NCBI GenBank assembly: GCA_039915925.1
Contig: JBDSMG010000073.1
Location: forward strand, 14,902 to 78,901
DNA: 64,000 nt
Reading direction: 5' to 3'
DNA from: Sphingomicrobium sp.
GTDB lineage: Bacteria > Pseudomonadota > Alphaproteobacteria > Sphingomonadales > Sphingomonadaceae
Numbering within the stretch: the stretch's first letter is position 1; the number at the start of each line of letters is the position of its first letter. This document shows, piece after piece, positions 8,370-55,279 of this stretch. Under the pieces are notes generated by a model, which was not told the origin of the DNA, searched no databases, and was given only the letters and a program-made list of their open reading frames with translations. The position numbers and the translations under genes were made by a program.

Positions 8370-8380
8370 GGCGCCAAAGG

Positions 8381-9724: not shown

Positions 9725-9749
9725 GTTTCTCTCCCCAAGATTCAGTAGC

Positions 9750-11457: not shown

Positions 11458-12126
11458 CTAAGGAAAAAATACGAGCCGTTGAGTAAGCCGAGGGTTTCTG
11501 AACCGCTCGTCGCTCTTGATCCAGTCTCCGCTGATTTCTCCGGAATGAGGCACGAAGCCGGGGTAGATGGCAAGCCGGTTGAAGGCGGCCTCAATGCGAG
11601 CGCGAAGTCTGAAACTAGAATCGTTGCTAGTCATATATCCTTCCGCGGGTCTCGCATGAAGCGGGCCGGGCACTTGCTCGAAGAACAGAGTTCCCCCGCG
11701 GTCCTCCCGGTTCAGGTAGATCAGTCCGAACACAGGCACCGGGTCCGTGTGCGGTATCCGTTGCTTCTGTGACAGGTCGTCAGGGTGCACATCGACGATG
11801 CCGAAGTCGGTATGAAGGTTGCGGAAGGCCGCGATCGATTGCCCGTTGTAGATGATCGATGGGACCCGTGGGAGGAACTGGTCGGTCACGAGAGCTAGAG
11901 CCCAGGCGATCAGATTCGTCAGTGAAGGATTTGGTGGCGGGATCGCGAGTTTGCCTGGGTAAGGGTAAGGCGGCCTCGTATAGGTTAGCTGGAGGGCCAT
12001 CTCACGAATTTCATCCGGCCGCTCGTAGACATTGTCCACGATGATTGCTGGCACGACGCCCCCAAGCATCTCGAACGAGAATCGTTGTTTCGTCGACAAT
12101 TCGAACAATCGGTCGTCTATCTGCAT
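11458..12126 (-). CDS. DUF6445-like protein, putative Fe(II)/2-oxoglutarate double-stranded beta-helix fold
   Basis: 222 aa; IIVDNVYERPDEIRE, YPGK, IPHTDP, LIYLN, GGTLFF, FNRLAIYPGFVPHSG, RLTQRLVF; H-x-D...H triad. Confidence 0.65.
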   Translation of the reverse strand: MQIDDRLFELSTKQRFSFEMLGGVVPAIIVDNVYERPDEIREMALQLTYTRPPYPYPGKLAIPPPNPSLTNLIAWALALVTDQFLPRVPSIIYNGQSIAAFRNLHTDFGIVDVHPDDLSQKQRIPHTDPVPVFGLIYLNREDRGGTLFFEQVPGPLHARPAEGYMTSNDSSFRLRARIEAAFNRLAIYPGFVPHSGEISGDWIKSDERFRNPRLTQRLVFFP

Positions 12127-12390: not shown

Positions 12391-12404
12391 TGGTAGCGGT
12401 ATCA
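12391..12404. promoter_or_regulatory. LacI-family operator TGGTAGCGGTATCA
   Basis: Near-palindrome 86 nt upstream of the TonB-dependent receptor start. Confidence 0.75.
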
Positions 12405-15400: not shown

Positions 15401-15894
15401 ATGGTCTGGGCATCCAAACCAACGCCACTTACGTGAAGAATACGGGCATTCCGAACTCTGGTCTTTCGAGCGTGGGCTCTCCGCTGGCAAACGGCGGCAG
15501 CTTCACGAACGGAACGGTTCTGAACCCGGGTTCGCTCGAGGGCCTGTCGAAGTGGTCGTACAACGTCATCGGAATGTACGAGAAGAACGGCCTCTACCTG
15601 CGTCTGGCCTACAACTGGGCGTCGAAGAAGCTGGTCACTGCGGTGGATTGCTGCGTCGCTCTGCCGGTTTGGCAGAAGCCGGCGGGCTACCTCGACGGCT
15701 CCGTCCGTTACGACGTCAACCAGTCAGTTCAGCTGAGCTTCCAGGTTAGCAACCTGCTCAACACGCAGACTAAGCTGATGCAGCAGGTGGCGGATGAGGA
15801 CAGCCCCGAGGGCAAGCGCATCCTGGTCCCGAACGCGTTCTTCCAGCAGGACCGCCGTTACACGATCGGTGCTCGCCTGAAACTCGGCAAGTAA
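12490..15894 (+). CDS. TonB-dependent receptor (glycan importer)
   Basis: 1134 aa from ATG 12490 (RBS GGGGAG); signal peptide, IVVTGQR, plug motif DIGAFPDKSIAEALQRVPGI, YKNQTAELIEGGIAGSIN, C-terminal NLLN...DRRYTIGARL. Confidence 0.95.
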   Translation: MTARSFTASRALRGGASTMVLGAMLFAPAAYAQTTTPAETEATKPLSAQTDPAVAAAPKDDPGAIVVTGQRRALRNAQQIKRNADTVVDSITATDIGAFPDKSIAEALQRVPGITVNRFAATGDTAHFSAEPSGVIVRGLPQVRSEFNGRDTFSANSSRGLSWSDITPELMAGVDTYKNQTAELIEGGIAGSINMRTRVPFDATGQLFQVGANMNYNDLAKKWSPDANVFYSNRWSTGLGEIGIMANGAYSKVNTASQGIQYGRAGVFDNVFPASGMTTVYAPSGVSFRDNLYERTRTGIAAAVQWKSLDDRLLFTTQYNRSVYKSGWDERVVSANFFGLFGQNATYRFNPTNDPLSGGVRQNPRQAPGSSPFTFDDDGWLNGGTFSQYNGWFGPPGEQAGFGVLSSGQPIFQACYTWGCPTGGQPGTYGAGANTASRSNSNRNMTQDISANLKFEATDRLRFNVDAQRVNSTIDNYDIEVDFNSFANVQAEFNGRPTVAFLPPTHVNQSPGGLANPNNYYINAVMDHLEDSAGREYALRGDGEYDLNTNWFDSIKFGARMADRKQKVQWSTYNWHNVANTWTDYSPCPHPYFNLDSTPKTCVRPGQPTVNFQGYPSGFYETAPFGTAYHGGNLGDFVFVPRDFLREGRASEFSQTQTGVGSFEPICNRNGQRTQGGDVIAVELPDSCFTADEISDVSEKTKAVYAMLRFGGPNASIGGIGVSGNLGVRYVGTTNESRGFTRWPGQVTNSNCPTVALVPGGLTGTRTTPPTGAPGAFAPWPVECYLSGADLAFDTGGGAESTVKVKHHHLLPSFNIRFDLSPKWLLRFAASKAMSRPDIGQLKNFVAISQGRPSNVSTDPRWILNAAGQPIGVNPTYTATAFNPYLKPITALQFDLSLENYFANVGSFSFALFHKRFKNYIQTGSFGVDYTNGGTTRTVTVQGPANGKGAKISGFEVAYTRFFDFLPDPLNGLGIQTNATYVKNTGIPNSGLSSVGSPLANGGSFTNGTVLNPGSLEGLSKWSYNVIGMYEKNGLYLRLAYNWASKKLVTAVDCCVALPVWQKPAGYLDGSVRYDVNQSVQLSFQVSNLLNTQTKLMQQVADEDSPEGKRILVPNAFFQQDRRYTIGARLKLGK

Positions 15895-15904
15895 GCTCTA
15901 ATCG

Positions 15905-15943
15905 GGGCCGGGCGCTGCACCGTGCAGCGCCCGGCCCTTTTTT
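15905..15943 (+). terminator. Rho-independent terminator after the TonB-dependent receptor
   Basis: GGGCCGGGCGCTGCAC-c-GTGCAGCGCCCGGCCC perfect inverted repeat followed by TTTTTT. Confidence 0.88.
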
Positions 15944-16025
15944 GTGCCCGCCGCACGTGCGGTCGGCATGACTTGGGCTTGCATCGCCCGCTCAAAGAGG
16001 CATGACGCCGCGGGGAGTCCGGCCG

Positions 16026-17561
16026 GTGAATGATCCAGTCGAAGTAGTGATCCTGGGCGGTGGAACGGCCGGCTGGATGGCCGCGGCCGCGCTTTCGGCC
16101 TTGCTGCCGCGCAGCCGGTGCAACGTCCGTCTGGTGGAATCTGAAGAGATCGGAATCGTCGGCGTGGGTGAAGCGACCCTGCCGCACATGAAGAATTTCA
16201 ACGACGCGGTCGGGATCGACGAAGCGGAGATGATCCGCGCCACCAAGGCGACCTTCAAGCTTGGTATCGAGTTCCGCGACTGGGGTTTTCTGGGATCGTC
16301 CTATGTGCATCCGTTCGGAATTCACGGAGCTTCAGAAACCAGCCTCGGCTTCCACCACAAATGGCTGCGCGCGGCGCAGACTGGGCATGAGTCCAATCTC
16401 GAGGATTTCTCATTTGCGATCGTCGCCAGCCGCCAAAACCGCTTCGACTTCCCGGCCGCGACCGGCAAACCCGGGATCGCCTCTACCTACAGCTACGCCT
16501 ATCATTTCGACGCGAGCCTCTACGCTGCATTCCTGCGAAAGTTCGTCGAGGCGAGGGGCGTCACACGGATCGAGGGCATGGTGCGCGCGGTCAACAAGAC
16601 CCCCGGTGGGGATATAGCCTCGCTAACACTCGAGTCCGGCGAAGTGGTGAGCGGCAATTTTTTCATCGACTGCTCCGGTTTCCGCTCGATCATCCTCGGC
16701 GAAGCGCTTGGGGCGGAGTGGGAGGATTGGAGCAATTGGCTTCCGTGCGATCGCGCCTGGGCCGTGCCGTCCGCGAACGTTGGTGAGTTGACGCCTTATA
16801 CGCGCTCAACCGCGCTTGACGCTGGCTGGCAATGGCGCATCCCGCTGCAGCATCGCACCGGCAACGGTCATGTTTTCTCGACCGGTTTCACGACGGAGGA
16901 GCAAGCGCGCGAGACCCTGCTTGCTAATCTCGATGGCCAGGCGCTTGCCGAGCCGCGCTTGCTGCGCTTCCAGGCAGGCCGACGCCTCGGTTCATGGCAC
17001 CGCAACTGCCTCGCGCTCGGGCTCGCGAGCGGTTTCCTGGAGCCGCTTGAATCGACGAGCATCTATCTCGTGCAGATCGCGCTGATGCACCTGCTGCCGC
17101 TGTTCCCGGGACGGCAGACCGAGCCCGCGCTTCGCGACGAGTTCAACCGCCGGATGGAGGTCGAATATGAACGCATCCGCGACTTCCTGATCCTCCACTA
17201 CCATCTGACCAACCGCGACGATTCCGAGTTGTGGCGCTATTGCCGGGCGATGGACGTTCCGGAGAGTTTGACCTTCAAGATCGAGCGCTTTCGGCGCCGC
17301 GGCTACATCGAGCGGTACCGCGAAGGGTTGTTCACGCCGCCGAGCTGGCTCAGCGTCCTAGTCGGGCAAGGACTGAAGCCCGAGCATTATCATCCGACCA
17401 TGGACAATGTCCCGGCCGAGGAGGTCGCGCGCGAACTCGAGGAACTTCGCACCGACATCCTCGACCGCGTTGAAGAAATGCCGAAGCACGAAGCAGTGAT
17501 GGCCCGCTACACGCGCGACGGATTCGCCTCCGACCCATTTGCATTCGGGCTCAATGCATGA
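16026..17561 (+). CDS. Tryptophan-halogenase-family flavoprotein 1
   Basis: GGGTAGW, VGVGEAT, ATFKLGI (catalytic Lys position), WQWRIP, FLEPLESTS; start placed at GTG 16026 after GGGGAG. Confidence 0.9.
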   Translation: MNDPVEVVILGGGTAGWMAAAALSALLPRSRCNVRLVESEEIGIVGVGEATLPHMKNFNDAVGIDEAEMIRATKATFKLGIEFRDWGFLGSSYVHPFGIHGASETSLGFHHKWLRAAQTGHESNLEDFSFAIVASRQNRFDFPAATGKPGIASTYSYAYHFDASLYAAFLRKFVEARGVTRIEGMVRAVNKTPGGDIASLTLESGEVVSGNFFIDCSGFRSIILGEALGAEWEDWSNWLPCDRAWAVPSANVGELTPYTRSTALDAGWQWRIPLQHRTGNGHVFSTGFTTEEQARETLLANLDGQALAEPRLLRFQAGRRLGSWHRNCLALGLASGFLEPLESTSIYLVQIALMHLLPLFPGRQTEPALRDEFNRRMEVEYERIRDFLILHYHLTNRDDSELWRYCRAMDVPESLTFKIERFRRRGYIERYREGLFTPPSWLSVLVGQGLKPEHYHPTMDNVPAEEVARELEELRTDILDRVEEMPKHEAVMARYTRDGFASDPFAFGLNA

Positions 17562-19066
17562 TGCAGCCGGTTCGCAAGGTCGTGGTCGTCGGGCGCGACG
17601 GTCCGGCGTGGATGGCGGCATTGTCGCTGCAGCGCGCACTCGGCCGCGCGGGCCTTGAGGTCTCGGTCGTCGAACTGCCGTCGCTGTTGCGCGGCGCGGA
17701 TGTGTATGCGGCGCTGCCGTCCTTGCGGTCGCTGCACGACTTGCTCGGTCTTGATGAAGCGGCGGTGCTCACCGCTGCGCGAGGCGTTCCGATGGTTGCG
17801 CAACGCTATTCGGAATGGACCCCGGGCGCGGCCTTTCTGCAGGGCTATGACAGCGTCGAGGCACCCGGCGCTTTCCTCAGCTTTGTGCAGCTCTGGGCGA
17901 AGGCGCGGATCAAAGGCCTGCCGGTTCCATTCGAGGAGTTTTCCTACGGCGCAATGGCTGCGCGGCTCGGCCGCGTCCCTTCCGAAAGCGATGACCCGGA
18001 GGCGCTCGGCGCCACCTATGGCTATCATCTCGACGCGAACGCTTATTCCTTGCTGTTACGCACGCTCTCCGAACGACGCGGCATAAAGGTGCGTTCGACG
18101 CCGATCGCCGATGTGGAGATCAGCGAAGATCGAATTTTGGCGATCGAGCTTGCCGACGGTCAGCGCATCGAGGCCGATCTGTTCGTCGATGCCTCGGGTG
18201 CGGAGGCGGTGCTGATCTCACGCCTGCCGCAGAGTGCGTTCGAGGCGTGGGATGCCTTTCTTCCGTGCGACCGCTTGCTCGCGGCATCGGCGCCCAGACT
18301 TAGCCCATTGCCCGCCTTCAGTCAGGTCACCGCCTTCGACGCGGGCTGGGCCGGCATGTTTCCGCTGCAGGAACGCACTGCGGTGGTTGCGGCGTACCGA
18401 TCGACCGAAATCGGCGACGACGAATTGCTTCACAAGCTGAAAGCGGATGTTGGGATGCCGGTCGAGGGCGACGCCGTGGTGAGCACGATCGCTCCAGGTG
18501 TGCGCAAATCGCCGTGGATCGGCAATTGCGTTGCCGTCGCAGATGCGGCGGCGTTCCTGGAGCCGCTAGACTCGCTTCAGTTGCACATGGCGCATGTGTG
18601 CGTGACTCAGTTGATCAATTTCTTCCCGGTGGATTCCGACACGAGGATTGAAGCGACAGATTACAACGCCGCAGTGCGGCTGCACGCGTCGAACCTGCGC
18701 GACTTCCAGCAGTCACATTACAAGCTCAACCGAAGGACCGGGCAACGCCTGTGGGACGAAGCACGCTCGGCCGAGGTCTCCGACGGACTTGCCCAGAAGC
18801 TTCGTGTGTTCCAAGCCCGCAGCGAGGCGGTGCTCTATGACGAAGAAACGTTCGAAGCAGGCAGCTGGGCATCGATGTTTATCGGTCACGGGCTCACGCC
18901 CGAAGGATATGATCCGCGAGCCGACCTGATCGAGGAGCAGGATCACATCGAGCGGATTCAGGCCCGCCTACGCGAAATCGCAGGAAGCATTCCGGCCCTG
19001 CCCACGATAGAAGCCTTCCTGACCGCAACCCAGATTCCTGTGAAAGCACCGGCACCAGCATCATGA
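17558..19066 (+). CDS. Tryptophan-halogenase-family protein 2, catalytic motifs degenerate
   Basis: 502 aa, collinear with neighbours (YHLDA, FVDASG, FLEPL, YDEETF..SW..IGHG) but GRDGPAW, VPMVAQ, WAGMFP and LDSLQL replace the signature motifs; ATGA overlaps at both ends. Confidence 0.82.
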   Translation: MMQPVRKVVVVGRDGPAWMAALSLQRALGRAGLEVSVVELPSLLRGADVYAALPSLRSLHDLLGLDEAAVLTAARGVPMVAQRYSEWTPGAAFLQGYDSVEAPGAFLSFVQLWAKARIKGLPVPFEEFSYGAMAARLGRVPSESDDPEALGATYGYHLDANAYSLLLRTLSERRGIKVRSTPIADVEISEDRILAIELADGQRIEADLFVDASGAEAVLISRLPQSAFEAWDAFLPCDRLLAASAPRLSPLPAFSQVTAFDAGWAGMFPLQERTAVVAAYRSTEIGDDELLHKLKADVGMPVEGDAVVSTIAPGVRKSPWIGNCVAVADAAAFLEPLDSLQLHMAHVCVTQLINFFPVDSDTRIEATDYNAAVRLHASNLRDFQQSHYKLNRRTGQRLWDEARSAEVSDGLAQKLRVFQARSEAVLYDEETFEAGSWASMFIGHGLTPEGYDPRADLIEEQDHIERIQARLREIAGSIPALPTIEAFLTATQIPVKAPAPAS

Positions 19067-20589
19067 CCGCTAACCCCGTCCGCAATATCGTCATCGTCGG
19101 AGGCGGAACCGCCGGCTGGATGGCGGCTGCCGCAATGGCGAAGATTCTGGGCACCGAGACACGCAATATCACCTTGGTGGAGTCCGAAGAGATCGGCACG
19201 GTCGGCGTTGGCGAAGCGACGATTCCCGCGATCATGCTGTTCAACCAGATGCTGGAGATCGACGAGGACGAGTTCGTCCGCGCAACCCATGCGACGTTCA
19301 AGCTCGGCATCGATTTCGTCAACTGGCGCAAGCTCAACCATCGCTATTTCCACCAGTTCGGGCTGATCGGTGCGGAGCTGAAGAACGGTGTGTCCTTCAC
19401 CCATTATTGGACGCGCTGGCGGGACCTGGGTGGAAGCCCCGATCCGATGGAGTTCAGCGCGGAGGCCACCGCCGCAAAAGAGGGCCGGTTCGGCAAAGCG
19501 AGCCCAAAGGCCGGCCGAAACGTTCCGAACGTCAATTATGCCTACCAATTCGATGCATCGACCTACGCCGCATATCTTCGTCGCTATTCCGAGGCCCGTG
19601 GCATCATTCGCAAGGAAGGCCGGATCGTTGATGTCGAGGTGAATGGTGAAAGCGGGTTCATCGAAGCCTTGAAGCTTAACGACGGTAGCCGGATCGAAGG
19701 CGATCTGTTCGTTGATTGTTCGGGTTTCCGCGGACTGCTCATCGAGCAGCAGCTGGAGTCTGGCTTTCAGGACTGGAGCCATTGGCTGCCGAACGACCGA
19801 GCGGTGGCCGTGCCATGCGCGAAGATCGCGGATCCCACGCCCTTCACCGGTTCGACAGCGCAGGAGTCCGGATGGCAATGGCGCATTCCGCTGCAGCACC
19901 GCACGGGCAATGGATATGTTTTCTCAACCGAGTTCATCTCGGAGGACGAGGCGACAGCGAAGCTGCTCGAACGCCTCGACGGCGAACCGATTGCCGATCC
20001 GAAAGTGGTTCGTTTCAAGGCCGGAAAGCGCAAGCAGGCCTGGGTTAAAAACTGCATCGCCCTTGGGCTGTCGAGCGGATTCCTGGAGCCGCTGGAGTCG
20101 ACGAGCATCCATCTGATCCAGGTCGGCATCATGCGGATGTTCGCATTCTTTCCCGAGATGGATTTCGATCCGCTGCTGGCCAAGCGCTACAACGATGAGA
20201 TGGACCTGCTCTACGACGGCATCCGCGACTTTATCGTGGCGCACTTCAAGGTTACCGAGCGCGACGACACGCCGTACTGGGAGTATTGCCGCACGATGTC
20301 GGTTCCCGACAGTTTGCAGGCGAAGCTCGACCTGTTTGCAATGCGCGGCGAAGTCGTCCCCGATCCGCGCATGCTCTTTACCGAACACAGCTGGTTCGCG
20401 GTGCTCTACGGACAGGGCCTCGAGCCGCGCGGCTATCATCCGCTCGCGGACGCGCTCCCGGCCGATCAGCTCAACGCACACCTGACGCAAATCCGCTCAT
20501 TGATCCGGCAGCGGGTCAGCGAACTTCCGTCGCACGGCGATTATCTCCGGCACGTCGCGGCGGGTGCGCGCGCGACGGCTTTCGCCTAG
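19063..20589 (+). CDS. Tryptophan-halogenase-family flavoprotein 3
   Basis: GGGTAGW, VGVGEAT, ATFKLGI, WQWRIP, FLEPLESTS. Confidence 0.9.
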   Translation: MTANPVRNIVIVGGGTAGWMAAAAMAKILGTETRNITLVESEEIGTVGVGEATIPAIMLFNQMLEIDEDEFVRATHATFKLGIDFVNWRKLNHRYFHQFGLIGAELKNGVSFTHYWTRWRDLGGSPDPMEFSAEATAAKEGRFGKASPKAGRNVPNVNYAYQFDASTYAAYLRRYSEARGIIRKEGRIVDVEVNGESGFIEALKLNDGSRIEGDLFVDCSGFRGLLIEQQLESGFQDWSHWLPNDRAVAVPCAKIADPTPFTGSTAQESGWQWRIPLQHRTGNGYVFSTEFISEDEATAKLLERLDGEPIADPKVVRFKAGKRKQAWVKNCIALGLSSGFLEPLESTSIHLIQVGIMRMFAFFPEMDFDPLLAKRYNDEMDLLYDGIRDFIVAHFKVTERDDTPYWEYCRTMSVPDSLQAKLDLFAMRGEVVPDPRMLFTEHSWFAVLYGQGLEPRGYHPLADALPADQLNAHLTQIRSLIRQRVSELPSHGDYLRHVAAGARATAFA

Positions 20590-20597
20590 GGGGCCGC

Positions 20598-21479
20598 GTG
20601 AGGAACGATCGCTACGCCGGCGTCGAGCTTGGCGGGACCAAATGCGTGTTAACTCTTGCCGCAAGCAAGGATGACATCCTTGCGCAGGAGGTCGTCGCGA
20701 CCACTACGCCGGAAGAGACCATCGGCGCGATCGAACGCGTGTTGCTGAAGTGGCAGACGGAGCGACCGTTCCGCTCGCTCGGTATTGCCAGCTTCGGGCC
20801 GGTGGATCTCAACCGCGCGTCCCCGACCTTCGGCGATATTACAACCACTTCGAAGCCCGGTTGGAGCGGGACGGACGTCGGTCGGCGGCTTCAGACGCGG
20901 CTGGGCGTTCCGATGAGTTTCGATACGGATGTCAACGGAGCAGCGTTCGCGGAAATGCGCTGGGGTGCCGGGCGTGGGATGCAGGACTTCGCTTACATCA
21001 CGGTTGGCACCGGCGTCGGTGTCGGGTTGATCGCCAACGGGCAGTCGATGGCCGGTTTCCTCCATTGCGAGATGGGCCACAGCCGCGTCGCCCGGCTGCC
21101 GGGCGACGAATGGGCTGGTGCGTGCCCGTTCCATGGCGATTGCGTCGAGGGGCTTGCATCCGGAAGCGCATTGAAGGCGCGCTTCAACGGCCAGTCGCTT
21201 GACGCCCTGTCTGAAGATCACCCCGTTTGGGACGCGGTCGCGTGGACGCTTGCGCAATTGTGCCACAACATCGCTTGCACCGCGGCTCCGCTGGCGATCG
21301 CCATCGGTGGCGGCGTCCTCGAGCGGCAGCCGCATCTGCTGGCCCGCATCCAGCCGCTGCTGGAGAAGAGTCTCAACGGGTATTTCGACCTTCCGGACAA
21401 TTACGTGCGAGTGCCCGGGCTCGGCGCGAAGGCTGGGCCGCTCGGTTCGATCGCCCTCGCGATGGATGCTGCGGCCTAG
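20598..21479 (+). CDS. ROK-family hexose kinase (fructokinase/mannokinase-like)
   Basis: From GTG 20598: GVELGGTK, SFGPVDL, DTDVNGAA, YITVGTGVGVG, EMGH, CPFHGDCVEGLASG Zn motif. Confidence 0.88.
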   Translation: MRNDRYAGVELGGTKCVLTLAASKDDILAQEVVATTTPEETIGAIERVLLKWQTERPFRSLGIASFGPVDLNRASPTFGDITTTSKPGWSGTDVGRRLQTRLGVPMSFDTDVNGAAFAEMRWGAGRGMQDFAYITVGTGVGVGLIANGQSMAGFLHCEMGHSRVARLPGDEWAGACPFHGDCVEGLASGSALKARFNGQSLDALSEDHPVWDAVAWTLAQLCHNIACTAAPLAIAIGGGVLERQPHLLARIQPLLEKSLNGYFDLPDNYVRVPGLGAKAGPLGSIALAMDAAA

Positions 21480-22255
21480 GCCCCGATCAGCATTCGGCCG
21501 CCGTCGCTTTCGAGCGGCTCATCCGGTTCCAGCAACAGGCACTCCCCTGGCCCGGCCTCGTCTCCGCCGGAGCGGATGATGCCTTCAAGTGGCATCACCC
21601 AACGGCGCTGCGTCGGGAAAACGCGTGGCGCTTCATTGCCTTCGGAAACGTGGACAAGGCTGAAGTGCGGGTCCTGAACCAGCACGCGGGTGTTCACCGG
21701 GTCGACCTGCTGCGCGAGGTGCGCGGGGTAGGGGAAAGGCTCGGAGACCTCCAGACCGTCGTCGAGATGGAGTTCGCGCGGGCGGCCATAGTCATAGAGG
21801 CGGTAGGTGACGCCTTCGTTCTGCTGGAATTCAAGGAGCGAAATGCCGGCGCCGACAGCGTGGATCGTTCCAGCCGGCACGAACAAAAAATCGCCCGCGC
21901 TGACCGGCCGCCAGTTCATCAACTGTTCGATCGAGCCATCGAGCGCGGCCTCGCGCAGTTCATCCTTGCCTACCTCGCGGTTGAGGCCGAGGCCGAGAGT
22001 CGCGCCTGGCGCGGCATCGAGGATGTACCAGCATTCAGTTTTGCCGTTCGCGACGCCGCGCTCGCGCGCCTGCTTGTCGTTGGGGTGCACCTGGATCGAT
22101 AAGCGCTCGCTCGTGAAGAGGTACTTTACGAGCAAGGGGAGCGGCTCGGGCGAGGTGAACCATATCTCGCCGATTTTTTGCCCGCTCGACGGGAATGGCG
22201 GCGGCAGCTGAGTCCTCCCCCACGGTTTTTCGATGAATTGGCGTTCGAGCTTCAT
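21476..22255 (-). CDS. manA: Type I mannose-6-phosphate isomerase (cupin)
   Basis: From ATG 22255: EKPWG, IGEIWF, LLVKYL, LSIQVHPND, KTECWYIL, AGTIHA, EFQQNEGVTYRLYDYGRPRELH. Confidence 0.85.
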   Translation of the reverse strand: MKLERQFIEKPWGRTQLPPPFPSSGQKIGEIWFTSPEPLPLLVKYLFTSERLSIQVHPNDKQARERGVANGKTECWYILDAAPGATLGLGLNREVGKDELREAALDGSIEQLMNWRPVSAGDFLFVPAGTIHAVGAGISLLEFQQNEGVTYRLYDYGRPRELHLDDGLEVSEPFPYPAHLAQQVDPVNTRVLVQDPHFSLVHVSEGNEAPRVFPTQRRWVMPLEGIIRSGGDEAGPGECLLLEPDEPLESDGGRMLIGA

Positions 22256-22269
22256 GCAATTCCCGAGGC

Positions 22270-23733
22270 TTAGATACGATCGCTGAGCCGGCAGATTTCC
22301 GGCCGCAACCGTCCTAGCGCAGTTACACCCTTTGCGTCGAACAGCACATGCTGCTGGGCGTTGGGGGTGAATTGCGGCCAAGCGGGCAGGCCATCGCCGT
22401 TCGGATCGCCGGACTTCACGAAGTTGAGCCAGTAAGGCTTCATGGACAGGCCCGGCGCGAACGTCTGGTCCCAAAATGCATAAGGGATCTCGGCCGCGTG
22501 CCGCGTCTGACCGCCGCCCGGCGCATGGTCAAATTCATACTGGAATACGCGTGCGCCGTTTGCGGAAAGCAGCTTTGCCATGTTGACCGCGGGACAACGG
22601 AAGATGACGTCGGTGCCGATTTGGTCGTCCAGGCTACCGAGGCGTGGGTCGGCCGCCGGATCGGGCTGGTCCATCCTGTAAAAGGCCCGCGCCTGCGCCT
22701 CGCGGCTTTCGAACGCCTTCGCAACCAGCGCGTCGCGGTGCTGGCGTTCGACGCCGAATTCGATCTTGTTGGTGCCGAGGATGACGGAGCGGGGCGGGGC
22801 CTGTCGCAGGAGCCCTCCGGGACTGGCCGGAAATGCCTTCCCGTCGATCGTCGTCCGCAGCCACAGGAATGAATCGGACTCGAGCGTATCATCGTGCAGT
22901 TTCGTATCGACAGCCAGCAGGGCCGGGACCGACATTCGCCGCAGCTTGGCTATGTCGCCACCGGTGCCGAGCAGGGAATCGGCCTGGTCGCCGATCCGCT
23001 CGGCCTCGGTCAGGCTCCGGAATGGAAAGCCAAAGCCCGGCGTGCCGCTTTCCATGATGGCCTTCTGGAACAGGGTGCGGGCGGCGGGCGCGGCAAGCAG
23101 CAGGCTGACGTCCTGCGAGCCCGCGGATTCGCCGGCGATGGTGACGTTGCCGGGATCGCCGCCAAACTTTGCGATGTTGCGCTGGATCCATTGCAGCGCC
23201 GCCACCTGGTCCATGATTCCGTAATTGCCGGACCCGCCTTGTTCGGCGGTCAGCTGGCGGTGCGACAGGAAGCCGAAAATACCGAGGCGGTAGCGGATGC
23301 CGACCAGGACGACTTGCTTGCCGACGTCGCTCAGGATGATGTCGTTGGGCCCGCCAGCGCGGTTGCTGCCGCCGTGGATCCACACCAGCACCGGCTTCTT
23401 GCCGGTCATCGACGGTGTGCGGACGTCTAGCGTCAGGCAGTCTTCCCGGCCGATATTATAGTCGCCCTTGTTCCAGCCCTGGTCGTTCTGGACGCAGGAC
23501 GGCGGTTGATCGACGGAGTCGCGAACGCCTTTCCAGGCGAGAACCGCTTGCGGCGGCTTCCAGCGAAGATTTTCAACGGGAGGCGCCGCGAATGGGATGC
23601 CGCGGAACAGGGTTCCGCCAGCTTCGAACGGCTTGCCGCGAACCGCGCCGCCGTCGACGCCTACCACCTGTGAAGAGGCCGGTGCGGCCGACATTAGCAG
23701 CAGTGCGGCGAGAGTGGTGGTGATCGCTTTCAT
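22270..23733 (-). CDS. Type-B carboxylesterase/lipase family protein, signal peptide
   Basis: FRGIPFAAPP, EDCLTLDV, VWIHGG, GNYGIMDQVAALQWIQRNI, nucleophile GESAG, HAAEIPY; start ATG 23733 (MKAITTTLAALL). Confidence 0.9.
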   Translation of the reverse strand: MKAITTTLAALLLMSAAPASSQVVGVDGGAVRGKPFEAGGTLFRGIPFAAPPVENLRWKPPQAVLAWKGVRDSVDQPPSCVQNDQGWNKGDYNIGREDCLTLDVRTPSMTGKKPVLVWIHGGSNRAGGPNDIILSDVGKQVVLVGIRYRLGIFGFLSHRQLTAEQGGSGNYGIMDQVAALQWIQRNIAKFGGDPGNVTIAGESAGSQDVSLLLAAPAARTLFQKAIMESGTPGFGFPFRSLTEAERIGDQADSLLGTGGDIAKLRRMSVPALLAVDTKLHDDTLESDSFLWLRTTIDGKAFPASPGGLLRQAPPRSVILGTNKIEFGVERQHRDALVAKAFESREAQARAFYRMDQPDPAADPRLGSLDDQIGTDVIFRCPAVNMAKLLSANGARVFQYEFDHAPGGGQTRHAAEIPYAFWDQTFAPGLSMKPYWLNFVKSGDPNGDGLPAWPQFTPNAQQHVLFDAKGVTALGRLRPEICRLSDRI

Positions 23734-23764
23734 CGGGTCCGGCTCCGTGCAGGTTCGCAATACT

Positions 23765-23778
23765 TGTTAGCGCTAAAA
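23765..23778. promoter_or_regulatory. LacI-family operator TGTTAGCGCTAAAA
   Basis: One mismatch from palindrome TGTTAGCGCTAACA, in the divergent esterase/GluP intergenic region. Confidence 0.75.
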
Positions 23779-23842
23779 AGCCGCCTTGTGCGAGCCCGCT
23801 TTCGCTGCCAGTTTGCCGCCATCTTAGGGGAGATGCCTGGAC

Positions 23843-25132
23843 ATGCAGCAAGAGCGACAATCGGCCGGAACCACAAGCGCTTACGCGCTCGTCACATGCT
23901 TGTTCTTCGCCTGGGGGTTCATCACGTCGTTGATCGATCCGTTGGTCGCGGCGGTGAAGGGTATTTTCAGCCTTAGCGATCTTCAGGCGCAGTTGAGCGC
24001 GTCCGCTTTCTTCATTGCATACGGCGTCATGAGCTTCCCGGCGGCCGTTCTCCTTTCCCGCCGCAAGGCGGTTCCGACCGTCATTATCGCACTTGGAATG
24101 ATGGTGGCCGGCTGCATGCTGATGCTTTGGGCGGCGAACATCGCCAACTACAGCATTGTTCTTGCCGGCCTGTTCGTACTCGCCAGCGGAATCACCATCC
24201 TGCAGGTTGCGGCGAACCCACTCGCCGCTGCATTAGGCTCCCCTGAAAAAAGCCATTTCCGCCTCACGTTCAGTCAGGCATTCAACAGTTTCGGCACCTT
24301 CATCGGCCCCTATCTCGGGGCGGTCCTCTTCCTGAAGGGCGTCGAGGTCAAACATGGCACCACCATTACGGGTGAGGTCCGCAACGCTTCCCTGGCAGGC
24401 ATCGACCGTGCCTTCTTCTGGATTGCCGGCCTCATCATCCTGATCGGCGTGCTGATCTGGGCTGGTCGCAAGCTGATCACCGCTGCGGCGGCCCATGATG
24501 AGAATGCCAAGCCGCTTGGGATGGGCGCCGCCTTTGCTGACGCTTTCTCTTCGCCATGGGCCTTGTTCGGTGGCTTGGCCATTTTCCTTTACGTAGGTGC
24601 TGAAGTTGCGATCGGCACGCAGATGGCCCTGTTCCTCAACAGCGATGCAGTGTGGGGCATTCCGCTGCAGGATGCCGGCAAGTGGGTCAGCATGTATTGG
24701 GGCGGCGCGATGGTCGGCCGGCTTGTCGGGTCTGCCTTACTCACCAAGGTCGACGCGCCGAAGCTTCTGGCCGCGTTCACCGGGCTTGCGTGCGCGATGT
24801 GTCTATATGTGTTCGCGGTCGGCGGGATCGGCGGCGGCTACGTCGCGCTAGCGATCGGCCTGTTCAATTCGATCATGTTCCCGGTGATCTTCACGATCAC
24901 GCTGGAACGATCGACCGCTTCGGAGGAGGCGACATCGGGCTTCCTCTGCTTCTCGATTGTGGGCGGCGCGGCGCTGCCTCCGATCGTCGGGCTCGTGTCT
25001 GGTCACAGCAGCTATGTGACCGCGTTCATCGTTCCCGCGCTTTGCTATGCAGTCCTTTGCGCGTTCGCGATCGCATCGCGGGGAGCCAAGCTGCATCACC
25101 GAGAGGACGGAACCGCGGCGGTTTTCCACTAA
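23843..25132 (+). CDS. MFS sugar transporter, GluP/FucP family
   Basis: FFAWGFITSLIDPL, LQVAANPL, SQAFNSFGTFIGP, YVGAEV, SIMFPVIF; 12-TM pattern. Confidence 0.9.
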   Translation: MQQERQSAGTTSAYALVTCLFFAWGFITSLIDPLVAAVKGIFSLSDLQAQLSASAFFIAYGVMSFPAAVLLSRRKAVPTVIIALGMMVAGCMLMLWAANIANYSIVLAGLFVLASGITILQVAANPLAAALGSPEKSHFRLTFSQAFNSFGTFIGPYLGAVLFLKGVEVKHGTTITGEVRNASLAGIDRAFFWIAGLIILIGVLIWAGRKLITAAAAHDENAKPLGMGAAFADAFSSPWALFGGLAIFLYVGAEVAIGTQMALFLNSDAVWGIPLQDAGKWVSMYWGGAMVGRLVGSALLTKVDAPKLLAAFTGLACAMCLYVFAVGGIGGGYVALAIGLFNSIMFPVIFTITLERSTASEEATSGFLCFSIVGGAALPPIVGLVSGHSSYVTAFIVPALCYAVLCAFAIASRGAKLHHREDGTAAVFH

Positions 25133-26631
25133 GCGGAGGCGATCAGCCTTTCGAGATAGGCGGCGTGGGTCGGGAGCGACCCCGCCGCTTTTTCGTAAGC
25201 GGTGTGGAGCTCGGCCAAGGCTCCGAGCGCCTGCGCGTCGGAGTAATTCGACAGCATCGGCTCGGCCGCTTCCGGGAAAATCTCCTGCCCGATCATCACC
25301 GCGGCCCAGCTCGCAACGTCGAATAGCTCGTCATTGTAGCGGAAGATGCGGCCATGTTCGCGGAACAGGTCGAACTTGTGCTGCAGGCTGTCGGGGATCG
25401 CCATCTCGCGGACGTGATCCCAGAAGGGGCCGGAGCGGCGCGTCGCCTTGTAGTGAAGGATGATGAAGTCGCGGATCGGGTCGTAGCTTTCGGCCAGCAG
25501 GCGATTGTATTCGGCGCGCTCGACCGGGTTGATACCGCTGCTCGGGAACAGGCTGATTAGTTTCTGGATGCCGCGCTGGATCAGGTGGATGCTGGTCGAT
25601 TCCAGCGGTTCGAGGAAGCCGGCAGCCAGGCCGATCGCAACGACATTGCCTTCCCATGAGCGCACGCGCCGGCCGGCCGTGAAGCGCAACTTGTTGGTGG
25701 CCGCGAGCTGCGCGCCGTCGAGATTGTCGAGCAGTAGTTGCTCCGCCTCATCCTCGCCCATGTGCGCGCTGCAATAGACATGGCCGTTGCCGGTGCGGTG
25801 CTGGAGGGGAATGCGCCATTGCCATCCGGCTGGTCGGGCAGTCGAACGGGTGAAAGGAGTCAGAGGCTCCACGCGCTCGCAGGGGACCGCAATAGCGCGG
25901 TCGCAGGGGAGCCAGTGGCTCCAATCTTCGAACGGGACCTCCATCGTCTGGCCGAGCAGAAGTGAGCGGAAGCCCGAGCAGTCGACGAACAAATCGCCCT
26001 TGACGACGCGATCGCCTTCGAGGCGGACGGCGGTTACGTCGCCGCTCTCCCCGTCGCGATCGACGCTGACGATCTTGCCTTCAATACGCTCCGCTCCGCG
26101 CGCTTCGGCGTAGCGACGGAGGAACTGGCCGTAGAGGCTGGCGTCAAAATGATAGGCGTAGGCCAGGCCCGAGAGTGGGGAGGAGGGGTCCTGGTTCGGG
26201 CGTGAGAAGCGGAACTGGCCGGCGGTCACGGCCGAGATCGAGTAATTCGAAAGTGGGCCGACCCCGCTGGAGCGGCGATGTTTCAGCCAGAGTTGATATA
26301 GCGGGACACCGTCGACGGCACGGCCGATGTCGCCGAACTGGTGGAAGTATCGCTGCCCGTCCTCGACCCAGTTCACGAAGTCGATTCCCAGCTTGTAGCT
26401 CGCCTTGGTCGCGCGCACGAATTCGGCTTCGGGAATGCCGAGCTGAATGTTGAATTCGTTGACCGGAGGGATCGTGCCTTCTCCGACACCGACCGTGCCG
26501 ATCGCTTCGGATTCGACCACGACGATGCGGCGTCCGGCGCCAACGAAGCGGGCGAGCGCCGCGGCCGCCATCCAGCCGGCGGTGCCGCCTCCGACGATAA
26601 CGATGCGGCGGATCGGTCCTGCTTCGCTCAT
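25129..26631 (-). CDS. Tryptophan-halogenase-family flavoprotein 4
   Basis: GGGTAGW, VGVGEGT, ASYKLGI, WQWRIP, FLEPLESTS. Confidence 0.9.
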   Translation of the reverse strand: MSEAGPIRRIVIVGGGTAGWMAAAALARFVGAGRRIVVVESEAIGTVGVGEGTIPPVNEFNIQLGIPEAEFVRATKASYKLGIDFVNWVEDGQRYFHQFGDIGRAVDGVPLYQLWLKHRRSSGVGPLSNYSISAVTAGQFRFSRPNQDPSSPLSGLAYAYHFDASLYGQFLRRYAEARGAERIEGKIVSVDRDGESGDVTAVRLEGDRVVKGDLFVDCSGFRSLLLGQTMEVPFEDWSHWLPCDRAIAVPCERVEPLTPFTRSTARPAGWQWRIPLQHRTGNGHVYCSAHMGEDEAEQLLLDNLDGAQLAATNKLRFTAGRRVRSWEGNVVAIGLAAGFLEPLESTSIHLIQRGIQKLISLFPSSGINPVERAEYNRLLAESYDPIRDFIILHYKATRRSGPFWDHVREMAIPDSLQHKFDLFREHGRIFRYNDELFDVASWAAVMIGQEIFPEAAEPMLSNYSDAQALGALAELHTAYEKAAGSLPTHAAYLERLIASA

Positions 26632-26688: not shown

Positions 26689-27066
26689 CTAGCGCTTGTA
26701 GGCGGTCCAGTCGCCGAGGAAGCAGGTCGGCCCCGGGATGATCGCGCCCGGCTCAAGCCCGCGAATGTGATCGCCGCGGCAATATTGGCCGCCCTGACTC
26801 TCGATGATCAGCGTGTTGAACGGGTCGAGCGCGGGGCAGGCGGAGGTCAGGTGGTTGATGTAGACGGTGCTGCCCTGACCGTAGGCGACCGTGCTGCGAT
26901 TGACGACCCGCACATTCTGACTGCCGAAGGTGGAAATGCAGGACGAGGTGCCGGCCTGTGTGCGGCCGGCAAGTTCCTGCGCGAGAGCGTCACGCGATCC
27001 GGGCTGGACGGCTTGCGGGGCGCAGCCGGCCAAAGGAAGCAGCAACAGCAGCAGGGATGATCGCAT
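26689..27066 (-). CDS. Small Cys-containing lipoprotein of unknown function
   Basis: From ATG 27066: MRSSLLLLLLPLAGC lipobox; four further Cys (SSCIS, SACPAL, QYCRGD, PTCFLG). Confidence 0.7.
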   Translation of the reverse strand: MRSSLLLLLLPLAGCAPQAVQPGSRDALAQELAGRTQAGTSSCISTFGSQNVRVVNRSTVAYGQGSTVYINHLTSACPALDPFNTLIIESQGGQYCRGDHIRGLEPGAIIPGPTCFLGDWTAYKR

Positions 27067-27115: not shown

Positions 27116-29233
27116 TTAGGGTGCTCCGGGCAGTTTCTCCGACTGGAGAGCTTGATAATAACCAAGTGGATGAGCGGGCGCTGAATGGCCCTTCGGAAGC
27201 GGCAGTTGATTGACGCTTTGCCAATAGGCGATCGAAGCGTCGCGCCACCAGATTGCTTCGTCGAGCTGTTTCGCGAGCTTCGCAGCGACGGCCGCGTGCC
27301 GCTCGGGATCGACGAATGGCCGGAGCGCGATCCACTGAGCATTCATTTCCCGGACGTCGGCGACGCCGGCGTCGTAGCGTTCGACCATCGCGTTCCACAG
27401 ACTCTGGCCTGACCGTACTCGATAGCTCCAGGGCAGGTGGTGGAACCACAACAGATAGTCTTCGGATGCAAGCAGGCGCGACCGCACCTGCGGCGCATAT
27501 TGGACGATCGCATTGCTGCCGGTCGCCGTGCGGTCGAAGCCGATTCCGTTGGCGTCGGAGCGATGGTAATATGTCGGGTTCCACGCCGGGGTCGATTGAT
27601 CGGAAACCCACGGCGCCGGGCCGTGATGATGGTTCGTTCCCATCAAATGGGCGAGGCCGAGCGGGGTCATGTAGTTCACAACCGCCTGCCGCGAGCGCAT
27701 CATCATCGCGACCACCGGTGACACCAGGCGCGGATCATTGCTCCAGGTCTGCCGCGCCCATTCTTCCGCGACGGTTCGAGGGTCCGCGTCCGGGTTCCAA
27801 GCAAGCCGCCCGAAAGCATACCAGTTGGCCTGGTCGAAATCGGACCCGCTCCAGTTGCGGTCCGTGCCGGTGTTGGCGACGCCCGCCATCGCGGAGATCG
27901 TGTCCGCGACCTCGGAGGTCGGGCGTGGGCGAGCCGTGCGGCTGCGCAGCACTTCGGACCACAGCGGCCCGAGGTAGGCGAGATGGGTCGAGAAGCCGAG
28001 ATATTCCTTGGTGATCTGTGCTTCGAGGGCGAGCCGAGTGTTGGGCATGGCCCCGAAGATCGGGCTGAACGGCTCGCGCGGCTGGAAGTCGAGCGGGCCG
28101 TTCTTGACCTGCAGGATCACATTGCGCCGGAACTTGCCGTCGAACGGCACAAACTCGTCATAGGCCGCGCGGATACGGTCCTGATTGCGGTCCAGCGAGT
28201 AGACGAACGCCCGCCACAGCACGACGCCGCCATGCGGGGCGAGCGTGTCGGCAAGCATGTTGGCGCCGTCGGCATGGCTGCGGCCGTAATTCTGCGGTCC
28301 CGGCTGGCCTTCGGAATTGGCCTTGACCAGGAAGCCGCCGAAGTCCGGGATCAGGCGGTAGATTTCGTCAGCTTTCGCTTTCCACCAGGCGCGCACCGCC
28401 GGCTGGGTAGGATCAGAACTGGTCAGCCCGCCGATCTCCTGGGGGGCGGAGAAGCGGGCGGTGAGGTAGACGCGGATGCCGTAGGGGCGGAATGCATTCG
28501 CGAGCGCGGCCGCCTTGCGCAGGTACGCGTCGGTTAGCACCTGCGCGTTGGCATTGACGTTGGTAAGTGCCGTGCCGTTAATTCCGATCGAGGCGTTGGC
28601 GCGGGCATAGTCGATGTAGCGCTGATCGATGCGGGTCAGGGTCGCCCAGTTCCACAATGATTTGCCGGCATAACCGCGCTCGACGCTGCCATCGAGATTG
28701 TCCCAATGGTTCAGCATCCGCAGCTTGAGGCGCGGAGTATCGGAGATGTTGAGCGCCGCAAGCGGCTGGCGAATCTGCATCCGGCGCAGCAGCGCGAAAC
28801 TGCCGTAGAGCACGCCGATGTCGCTGTTCGCGGCAACGACGGTGACTGGATGACCGGCGACGCGGCTGTTGCGTATGAGATAACCTTCTAGGCCCAGCTC
28901 GGCGAGCGGCAGTTTCAGCGCGGCAATCACGCGCGAGTTACCCGGGGTGCCGATGAGGATGGCGCCGTCGCGAAGTCCGACTGCGGGCGCGACGCCGACC
29001 ATCGCAACTATGCCGCGGCGCAGTTCCGCTGCCGCGGCGTCGAGCGTCCGGCTATGCGATTGTTGCACCACGGCCGTCGCCTGAGGACGATATTGCTGCA
29101 GCCGGGCAGCCTCGACGGGGCGGTAGCGAAGCCACAGGTCGTAGCTGTCTTCGGCGTAGGCGGGGCCGCCGCAGATTAGGACTATTGCGCAGACAATTTG
29201 TGCAATCGGCAACAGGCGCAACATATTCGACAT
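27116..29233 (-). CDS. aguA: GH67 alpha-glucuronidase
   Basis: MLNHWDNLDGSVERGYAG, FLVKANSEGQPGP, KNGPLDFQPREP, QITKEYLG, YMTPLGL; signal-like N-terminus. Confidence 0.93.
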   Translation of the reverse strand: MSNMLRLLPIAQIVCAIVLICGGPAYAEDSYDLWLRYRPVEAARLQQYRPQATAVVQQSHSRTLDAAAAELRRGIVAMVGVAPAVGLRDGAILIGTPGNSRVIAALKLPLAELGLEGYLIRNSRVAGHPVTVVAANSDIGVLYGSFALLRRMQIRQPLAALNISDTPRLKLRMLNHWDNLDGSVERGYAGKSLWNWATLTRIDQRYIDYARANASIGINGTALTNVNANAQVLTDAYLRKAAALANAFRPYGIRVYLTARFSAPQEIGGLTSSDPTQPAVRAWWKAKADEIYRLIPDFGGFLVKANSEGQPGPQNYGRSHADGANMLADTLAPHGGVVLWRAFVYSLDRNQDRIRAAYDEFVPFDGKFRRNVILQVKNGPLDFQPREPFSPIFGAMPNTRLALEAQITKEYLGFSTHLAYLGPLWSEVLRSRTARPRPTSEVADTISAMAGVANTGTDRNWSGSDFDQANWYAFGRLAWNPDADPRTVAEEWARQTWSNDPRLVSPVVAMMMRSRQAVVNYMTPLGLAHLMGTNHHHGPAPWVSDQSTPAWNPTYYHRSDANGIGFDRTATGSNAIVQYAPQVRSRLLASEDYLLWFHHLPWSYRVRSGQSLWNAMVERYDAGVADVREMNAQWIALRPFVDPERHAAVAAKLAKQLDEAIWWRDASIAYWQSVNQLPLPKGHSAPAHPLGYYQALQSEKLPGAP

Positions 29234-29276: not shown

Positions 29277-29290
29277 TGATAGCGCTATCA
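29277..29290. promoter_or_regulatory. LacI-family operator TGATAGCGCTATCA (perfect palindrome)
   Basis: In the 69-nt divergent GH67/GH10 intergenic region, immediately before the GH10 RBS. Confidence 0.85.
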
Positions 29291-39703: not shown

Positions 39704-39717
39704 TGTTACCGCTAACA
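39704..39717. promoter_or_regulatory. LacI-family operator TGTTACCGCTAACA
   Basis: Near-palindrome 6 nt after the lacI stop and 35 nt before the sugar porter start. Confidence 0.78.
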
Positions 39718-49309: not shown

Positions 49310-49323
49310 TGGTAGCGCTACCA
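49310..49323. promoter_or_regulatory. LacI-family operator TGGTAGCGCTACCA (perfect palindrome)
   Basis: Divergent ALDH/GH3 intergenic region. Confidence 0.85.
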
Positions 49324-55265: not shown

Positions 55266-55279
55266 TGGTAACGCTATCA
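55266..55279. promoter_or_regulatory. LacI-family operator TGGTAACGCTATCA
   Basis: Divergent GH3/GH5 intergenic region. Confidence 0.75.

Follow-up and report, generated by a model that had tools for sequence, protein, structure and literature searches.

Proteobacteria of soils, freshwater and marine habitats frequently carry, in their loci for the utilisation of glycans, genes of the tryptophan halogenase family that adjoin TonB-dependent receptors. These rank with the most common genes in such loci for which an explanation is lacking, which raises the question of what a halogenase would do in a locus devoted to sugars. We have addressed this question in a stretch of 64,000 nucleotides of Sphingomicrobium sp. 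(NCBI GenBank assembly GCA_039915925.1, contig JBDSMG010000073.1, positions 14,902 to 78,901 of the forward strand), in the following termed the window, where an original prediction made from the sequence alone had described four such genes within a hemicellulose locus. A scan of the open reading frames (ORFs) of the window with Pfam profiles bears out this description, with matches to PF04820 at all four genes, which we have named halA (16002-17561, plus strand, 603 bits), halB (17558-19066, plus strand, 313 bits, profile positions 1-456), halC (19063-20589, plus strand, 621 bits) and halD (25129-26631, minus strand, 624 bits). As stated in the original prediction, the first three follow the gene of a TonB-dependent receptor and precede that of a sugar kinase, which is of the ROK family. 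The fourth, which had been placed after the GH67 unit, ends a unit on the minus strand in which it lies downstream of genes for a GH67 alpha-glucuronidase and a small lipoprotein. HalA, HalC and HalD have kept the residues of flavin-dependent halogenases, whereas HalB belongs to a conserved clade in which these residues are lost. Our favoured reading, to which we would give slightly less than an even chance, is that the locus encodes sugar-regulated cytoplasmic halogenases of group C, one of which, HalA, would have HalB for a non-catalytic partner.

The receptor (12490-15894, plus strand) contains plug and barrel domains and scores 582.7 bits against the model TIGR01782 at a cut-off of 310, and it is thus a member of the carbohydrate-type 'TonB-Xanth-Caul' subfamily, in agreement with the earlier assignment of the locus to receptor-linked homologues of the Xanthomonas/Caulobacter type. 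As read from the sequence, its true start codon is the ATG at position 12490, and its signal peptide ends in AYA, followed by Q. The pairing of such receptors with halogenases has itself been known since 2010; the dead member, the recurrence of the order receptor, halA, halB and halC in about 60 loci, the gene overlaps, the terminator, the oxygenase-like gene and the putative operator described below are new here.

HalB is a conserved pseudoenzyme

HalB departs from its neighbours at each of the sites that define a halogenase. It carries GRDGPAW in place of the GxGxxG motif, methionine in place of the catalytic lysine, GWAGMFPL in place of WxWxIP and EPLDS in place of EPLES. The description of all four proteins as halogenase homologues therefore holds for HalA, HalC and HalD, which are intact, but not for HalB, which is degenerate and not a plausible halogenase. 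The same altered motifs are common to more than 115 database clusters with 48-67% identity to HalB, which argues against a mere decay of the gene, and the clade is recognized by the motifs GADAPAW, PVDVYAA, VPIAGQRF, GWVGLFPL and EPLDAVQ. For a comparison of homologous loci, we scanned one genome per species and obtained 80 loci from Sphingomonadales, Caulobacterales, Cellvibrionaceae, Microbulbifer, Gilvimarinus, Paraglaciecola and Steroidobacter, 63 of which contain a halB orthologue. In a phylogenetic tree, the HalB proteins form a monophyletic group comprising 59 of 59 tips with a support of 1.0, and the clade is found in the orders Sphingomonadales, Caulobacterales and Cellvibrionales, in Alpha- and Gammaproteobacteria.

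The reading frame of halB has its full length and is not interrupted by stop codons, and the AlphaFold2 (AF2) model of HalB, with a pLDDT of 88, superimposes on the halogenases BrvH from Brevundimonas sp. BAL3 (6FRL) and Xcc4156 from Xanthomonas campestris (6Y1W) with TM-scores of 0.88-0.91. The protein is thus predicted to retain the halogenase fold, and it probably binds no flavin. It diverges faster than the active paralogues, with a mean identity to the window protein of 46%, as opposed to 60% for HalA and HalC in the same 46 loci. Its conservation comes near parity with these proteins mainly in two regions, residues 101-140 and the helical module at the C-terminus, which we take to be the substrate-side elements of halogenase structures. 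With its catalytic residues lost and the protein conserved in the long term, HalB displays the hallmarks of a pseudoenzyme. Our literature search, which left most subscription journals outside, found neither a dead halogenase paralogue nor a functional study or physiological role of receptor-linked halogenases, and a conserved pseudo-halogenase apparently has not been described so far. What the search did yield was the neighbourhood paper of 2010, discussed below, and the biochemistry of BrvH and Xcc4156; beyond these, a transposon screen in Sphingomonas recorded a single, uninformative insertion in a 'tryptophan halogenase', and a metatranscriptome paper on Colwellia contains only speculation.

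A second dead clade was observed in Sphingomonas species. Its genes adjoin a TonB receptor gene and are the middle ones of three, with an intact paralogue on either side (loci L075, L079, L081, L083, L086, L087, L089, L092 and L094, at roughly 8200-10000 in each locus). Here, the lysine is replaced by arginine, GVGEAT by ADRLP, WxWxIP by GWTARWPL and EPLES by GPLG. These proteins are monophyletic as well (15 tips, support 1.0) and separate from the halB clade.

HalA, HalC and HalD resemble halogenases of group C

HalA, HalC and HalD all contain the flavin adenine dinucleotide (FAD) motif GGGTAGW, which conforms to GxGxxG, the sequence GWQWRIPL, which conforms to WxWxIP, and the sequence EPLES; in HalA these are accompanied by ATFK. 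The lysine in the ATFKLG sequence of HalC aligns with K79 of the tryptophan halogenase PrnA and the second glutamate of EPLES with E346, and HalA and HalD keep lysine and glutamate in the same alignment columns. A flavin-dependent role other than halogenation, which had been considered in the original prediction, is unlikely for these three proteins because the halogenation-specific lysine, glutamate and WxWxIP motif are kept. The halA clade of the tree comprises 69 of 70 tips.

The tryptophan 7-, 6- and 5-halogenases of groups A and B, such as PrnA, RebH, Thal and PyrH, share with these proteins the fold, K79, E346, WxWxIP and GxGxxG. These enzymes rely on a two-component supply of FADH2. Unlike in their case, the halogenase genes of the window are flanked neither by a biosynthetic cluster nor by a reductase gene dedicated to them: as had been noted, the window does not encode a flavin reductase, and the only gene of this kind in the genome (PF01613) is located on another contig (C68). 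The similarity of HalA, HalC and HalD to PrnA and RebH is comparatively weak (E ~1e-80 to 1e-100) and the alignments end at about residue 428 of PrnA, corresponding to residues 426-433 of the query, and thus before the C-terminal tryptophan-binding elements, with neither Trp3 nor Trp4 being found. Conversely, all three proteins align over their full length of ~490 residues with BrvH, Xcc4156 and the enzyme from Pseudoalteromonas sp. L11 (9LUQ), with E-values between 1e-135 and 1e-149 (E = 4e-144 for HalA and BrvH). They share with these enzymes the FAD motif, the catalytic lysine and glutamate, the WxWxIP motif and Trp1 and Trp2 motifs of the group C type. Group C of the flavin-dependent halogenases, which lacks Trp4, includes BrvH, Xcc4156 and the peptide halogenase MibH. 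The BrvH and Xcc enzymes brominate indole but not tryptophan and are orphan enzymes without a known native substrate (PMC5945002; PMC7336383). We consider it likely that HalA, HalC and HalD are active halogenases of substrates other than tryptophan. The three characterized relatives were tried as orthologues of the window proteins, and none was found to be orthologous to HalA, HalC or HalD, since all of them are only ~50% identical to many paralogues. They differ further in that HalB has none of their catalytic motifs, and for no characterized enzyme is a study in combination with a dead partner known. No curated NCBIfam model matches any of the four Hal proteins.

None of the Hal proteins contains a signal peptide, and HalA, HalC and HalD should therefore reside in the cytoplasm. 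For the same reason, a periplasmic role in replacement of SusD was ruled out.

halA and halB are tightly coupled

In the window, the junctions between halA and halB and between halB and halC each consist of an overlap in the sequence ATGA. This arrangement is widely preserved at the first junction, where the stop codon of halA and the start codon of halB overlap by 4 nucleotides (nt) in 46 of 60 loci, the two being no more than 10 nt apart in 56 of them. It is found less frequently at the second, with an overlap in 27 and a distance of 10 nt or less in 43 of 53 loci. The ROK kinase gene starts 9 nt past the stop codon of halC, and this short gap, which is 10 nt or less in all 10 loci where it was determined, assigns it to the halC operon. 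Pairwise sequence distances tell of a similar hierarchy. Those of HalA and HalB correlate with r = 0.87, which is reduced to a partial r of 0.74 when the receptor is taken into account, and the corresponding values are 0.75 (partial 0.54) for HalB and HalC and 0.68 (partial 0.38) for HalA and HalC. The correlation would point to a partnership between HalA and HalB; it is suggestive only, as tight linkage could give the same result. Taken with the gene overlap, it leads us to regard a complex of HalA and HalB as marginally more probable than its absence.

Between the receptor gene and halA, at positions 15904-15945 of the plus strand, we find a strong intrinsic terminator or attenuator hairpin of 16 base pairs, 13 of them G-C, with a calculated energy of -35 kcal/mol and followed by TTTTTTG. 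A comparable hairpin with a run of T is located past the stop codon of the receptor in 28 of 52 loci. With a terminator of such strength, expression of the halogenase genes probably depends on transcripts that read through it in part, and would be far weaker than that of the receptor. A scan for sigma-70 promoters gave nothing useful near halA. The gap between receptor and halA has a median length of 71 nt across the loci and, with the intergenic gaps being too short, we rejected the idea of a precursor for a ribosomally synthesized and post-translationally modified peptide (RiPP) at this place. Reading of the promoter region did not reveal a small ORF, a systematic scan for small ORFs across the loci not having been run.

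The halogenases are linked to receptors and to a putative sugar operator

The 2.8-Mb genome encodes six full-length PF04820 proteins and one fragment at a contig end. Since all seven genes lie next to TonB receptors, the arrangement is not a matter of chance. Seven receptors of the genome belong to TIGR01782 and three of them directly precede halogenase genes. Besides the receptor of the window, these are the receptors on contigs C26 and C75, which score 630 and 535 bits. On C75, the order LacI, major facilitator superfamily (MFS) transporter, receptor, halogenase and two GH13 genes defines a starch or maltodextrin locus. On C26 (L009, 5153-12054), a receptor is followed by SapC, a Cupin_8 (JmjC) protein and a halogenase, and this cassette does not contain any sugar-degrading gene. 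It is flanked by a gene resembling diacylglycerol kinase and by a gene of the GGDEF/EAL type, and its halogenase is the paralogue to which Xcc4156 is nearest. The seventh gene (C54:51320-51838, L011, minus strand) is cut by the contig end and is found about 5.6 kb from a locus with LacI, TonB receptor, MFS and GH43 beta-xylosidase genes.

A candidate link between these genes is provided by operator-like palindromes. The sequence TGGTAGCGGTATCA is located at positions 12391-12404 of the plus strand, 86 nt upstream of the start codon of the receptor, and the perfect palindrome TGATAGCGCTATCA at positions 29277-29290 of the plus strand in the divergent promoter region of the GH67 and GH10 genes, where it is preceded by TTGACA at a distance of 18 nt. 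The general pattern TGNTANCGNTANCA has six matches in the window, compared to an expectation of zero, and eight in the whole genome, all of which are intergenic. Further sites in the window are found at 39704, between the genes of a LacI protein (38595-39698) and a sugar transporter, at 49310, between those of an aldehyde dehydrogenase and a GH3 enzyme, at 55266, between those of a GH3 and a GH5 enzyme, and at 60183. The two sites outside the window immediately precede the receptor-SapC-Cupin_8-halogenase cassette (C26:5131) and lie upstream of the zwf-glk-eda operon of the Entner-Doudoroff pathway (C38:72190). On account of this distribution, the two halogenase transcription units in the window appear to belong, along with the cassette on C26, to a single sugar-responsive regulon of the LacI type, and we regard control of the halogenase genes by this regulon through the putative operator as probable.

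The cassette is conserved independently of sugar-degrading genes

Among the 63 loci with a halB orthologue, halA is found directly upstream in 60, the receptor in 57 and halC in 52, while the frequencies of other partners are lower, with Cupin_8 (JmjC) in 30, halD in 11 and DUF6445 in 5 loci. The cassette of the window is almost certainly a widespread assembly of receptor and halogenases in its fullest form. Around the core of receptor, halA, halB and halC the neighbours vary and include GH31, GH3 with GH5 cellulase, GH5 mannosidase with GH27, GH10 or no gene related to sugars. An orthologue of halD accompanies the three genes also in loci without GH67, and in one metagenomic contig GH31, receptor, halA, halB, halC, DUF6445 and halD are followed by housekeeping genes.

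These observations bear on the proposal, made in the original prediction, that the halogenases act on aromatic or phenolic compounds of the plant wall, such as ferulate, coumarate or lignin fragments, which would be imported through the locus. The cassette does reside within an island for xyloglucan, mannan and xylan and shares its operator, and it is close to the gene of a type-B carboxylesterase (22270-23760, minus strand) with a weak match to the feruloyl-esterase-like family BD-FAE. Still, we consider a role in the modification of plant phenolics very unlikely, because the linkage to receptors extends to paralogues in a starch locus and in a cassette without sugar-degrading genes, and the core remains constant while the sugar-degrading genes in its neighbourhood change or vanish. 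In addition, the enzymes are cytoplasmic, and the window does not contain genes for the catabolism of phenolic acids.

A second alternative would deny the cassette any role in glycan uptake and view the halogenase genes as travelling with receptors by duplication or lateral transfer, with HalB in the process of decay. Strict HalB orthologues are indeed patchy within the order, where they occur in 6 of 151 genomes and 4 of 54 genera, and HalB evolves faster than its neighbours. Against such neglect, HalB has remained full-length and without stops in one clade that extends over at least three orders and has conserved motifs of its own, the overlaps of 4 nt are preserved, a second dead clade has settled in the same middle position and the operator is common to the cassette and to sugar genes. 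We thus regard this explanation as highly improbable, and HalB as a non-catalytic partner subunit, for which its conservation, fold and translation in tandem with halA are fitting, remains the interpretation that we prefer.

A predicted oxygenase next to the receptor bears on the nature of the target

The DUF6445 gene (11458-12126, minus strand) is oriented divergently from the promoter region of the receptor and encodes a protein of 222 residues (PF20043, 77 bits), for which no curated NCBIfam model was matched either. The residues H126-x-D128, H194 and R213 are invariant in five homologues. A sequence search of the PDB with DUF6445 gave no match and its assignment stems from a fold search, where Foldseek matched the AF2 model (pLDDT 85) to ABH2, OGFOD1, NO66 and P3H1 with a probability of 1.0. 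According to its model, DUF6445 is a tailoring enzyme that resembles oxygenases dependent on 2-oxoglutarate (2OG) and Fe(II). As its gene adjoins the receptor, the window does contain a partner of the tailoring type. The earlier statement that biosynthetic context is absent has therefore to be divided: it stands with respect to scaffold genes, as no nonribosomal peptide synthetase (NRPS) or polyketide synthase (PKS) was found among the window ORFs scanned, whereas it had overlooked the oxygenase-like gene and the dead partner.

A related gene neighbourhood was described by Iyer, Abhiman, de Souza and Aravind in 2010 (PMC2938197), which contains a JOR/JmjC protein, one to three tryptophan halogenases, SapC, a TonB-class receptor and optionally a 2OG oxygenase similar to Syn9-gp52. 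In that study, both the Rossmann fold and the catalytic lysine are stated to be intact in the halogenase homologues, a dead member is not mentioned and the receptor is tied to the uptake of siderophores (PMC2938197). The window resembles this neighbourhood in the adjacency of a receptor and up to three following halogenase genes, and the full form consisting of receptor, SapC, Cupin_8 and halogenase is found on C26 of the same genome. The 2OG oxygenase-like DUF6445, with its HxD...H...R residues and its fold, may be a counterpart of the optional second oxygenase. The window differs in that one of the three halogenases, HalB, consistently lacks the catalytic lysine, in that the receptor belongs to TIGR01782, a carbohydrate class, and is located under a putative operator of the sugar type, and in that neither a SapC nor a JmjC (Cupin_8) gene lies within the window.

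On the basis of the 2010 study, halogenases and oxygenases would together synthesize a halogenated and hydroxylated metabolite of the siderophore type, derived from an amino acid, which is imported again by the TonB receptor. This is how the neighbourhood was interpreted at the time (PMC2938197), and tailoring-type enzymes are found here as well. We regard such a pathway as quite unlikely, since neither the window nor the homologous loci contain an NRPS, PKS, ligase or precursor gene, since the receptors belong to the carbohydrate and not to the siderophore class, since the putative LacI operator is of a sugar type that is common with zwf-glk-eda and since four such loci are found in one small genome.

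The same oxygenases lead to a further possibility, in which a protein of the cell envelope is tailored prior to its export, by halogenation of tryptophan, tyrosine or histidine and hydroxylation of other side chains. Its target could be the co-encoded receptor or a small lipoprotein, with HalB as the subunit that recognizes the substrate. In this respect, it is relevant that the receptor is the only constant partner of the cassette, that the partner oxygenases Cupin_8/JmjC and DUF6445, the latter similar to OGFOD1, NO66 and P3H1, resemble hydroxylases of proteins or nucleic acids, that group C contains the peptide halogenase MibH and that scaffold genes are absent. A candidate lipoprotein is also at hand. 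The protein of 125 residues encoded between GH67 and halD (26689-27066, minus strand) is rich in cysteine, has the lipobox LAGC and keeps the pattern QYCRGD...RGLEPG...IPGP.C, and its position next to halD is retained in the related loci L013, L044, L071 and L080. It has a single distant paralogue in the genome, on contig C21. Several observations are nevertheless difficult to reconcile with the tailoring of an envelope protein. Halogenated outer-membrane proteins are without precedent, Sec export requires unfolded chains and thus leaves little time for cytoplasmic modification, the N-terminal extension of the receptor does not contain tryptophan, tyrosine or histidine, the terminator implies that enzyme molecules are far fewer than receptor molecules, and the lipoprotein is confined to close relatives. 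For these reasons, we judge this explanation as unlikely.

Returning to a cytoplasmic HalA with a non-catalytic partner, its target might be the side chain of a peptide or protein or a small metabolite of the indole or phenol type instead of a plant-wall phenolic, as oxygenases resembling protein hydroxylases are constant companions and scaffold genes are absent. A protein or peptide as target is, in our estimate, somewhat doubtful.

A proposed mechanism

In the mechanism that we propose, HalA, HalC and HalD would act as FADH2-dependent enzymes of the BrvH/Xcc4156 type, which receive reduced flavin from the single general flavin reductase of the genome and halogenate an electron-rich aromatic compound other than free tryptophan that is not tied to one particular glycan. 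HalB would have kept the fold, whereas flavin binding is lost along with the catalytic lysine and the halide/WxWxIP site. Translated in tandem with HalA, it would most likely assist this enzyme as a prozyme does, in the role of an adaptor or activator, in a complex that HalC may join. The halogenase genes would be induced along with the sugar regulon via the common LacI-type operator, and the terminator past the receptor would hold their expression well below that of the receptor. Prozymes are pseudoenzyme partners of active enzymes, examples being the prozymes of AdoMetDC and PRMT1 in trypanosomes. The likeness is one of analogy and not of homology: in both cases a dead paralogue is kept by an active one, here with translation in tandem, but the protein families and organisms are unrelated, and for HalB both interaction and activation are predictions. 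In a stronger version, HalA and HalB, possibly with HalC, would form an obligate heteromer, in which the dead subunit recognizes a peptide or protein substrate tied to the function of the TonB receptor. We consider this version rather unlikely. If true, an obligate complex of HalA and HalB would be the first pseudoenzyme-dependent flavin halogenase, and it would explain both the poor performance of orphan group C halogenases on their own and their constant travel with sugar receptors.

Several points weigh against the view of HalB as a partner of HalA in a sugar-regulated system. Gene overlap and correlated distances can originate from simple linkage, and neither BrvH nor Xcc4156 needs a partner for its activity, weak as it is and on surrogate substrates (PMC5945002; PMC7336383). 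A terminator of this strength would be just as compatible with separate transcription of the halogenase genes, and the binding of LacI at the putative operator is something that we only infer. Neither a precursor peptide nor a scaffold gene was found, and the patchy occurrence of strict HalB orthologues implies that the cassette is dispensable for the use of glycans.

The findings matter beyond the locus as work on BrvH and Xcc4156 as biocatalysts has proceeded with neither their natural substrate nor their partners being known. A dead paralogue in tandem with one specific active paralogue, within a sugar regulon, turns the puzzle into one that is experimentally tractable, and two common readings of such genes, tryptophan halogenation and the synthesis of halogenated siderophores, are corrected.

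Other features of the locus

The ROK-family hexose kinase (PF00480, 20598-21479, plus strand) begins with a GTG codon at position 20598 and resembles fructokinases. Its best NCBIfam match is ScrK with 215 bits, which is under the cut-off of that model. It is followed on the minus strand by a cupin with a weak match to mannose-6-phosphate isomerase (PMI; 21476-22474), and a block of ROK, PMI, esterase, MFS and halD genes is syntenic in several related loci. The GH67 alpha-glucuronidase (27116-29233, minus strand), which is the first gene of the unit ending in halD, matches PF07488, PF07477 and PF03648. The remainder of the window constitutes a hemicellulose island with genes for GH31, GH35/42, BNR/GH74-like, GH27 and GH5 mannosidase-like proteins and a transporter of the SSF family, which further includes GH10, GH9, three GH3 enzymes, a GH5 cellulase, esterases, a LacI regulator and sugar transporters. 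Between positions 44807 and 49258 of the minus strand, genes for a gluconolactonase-like protein, a short-chain dehydrogenase/reductase, a protein of the FAH family and an aldehyde dehydrogenase follow each other in a row behind an operator, in what we presume to be an oxidative xylose pathway of the Weimberg type, of the kind known in Caulobacter.

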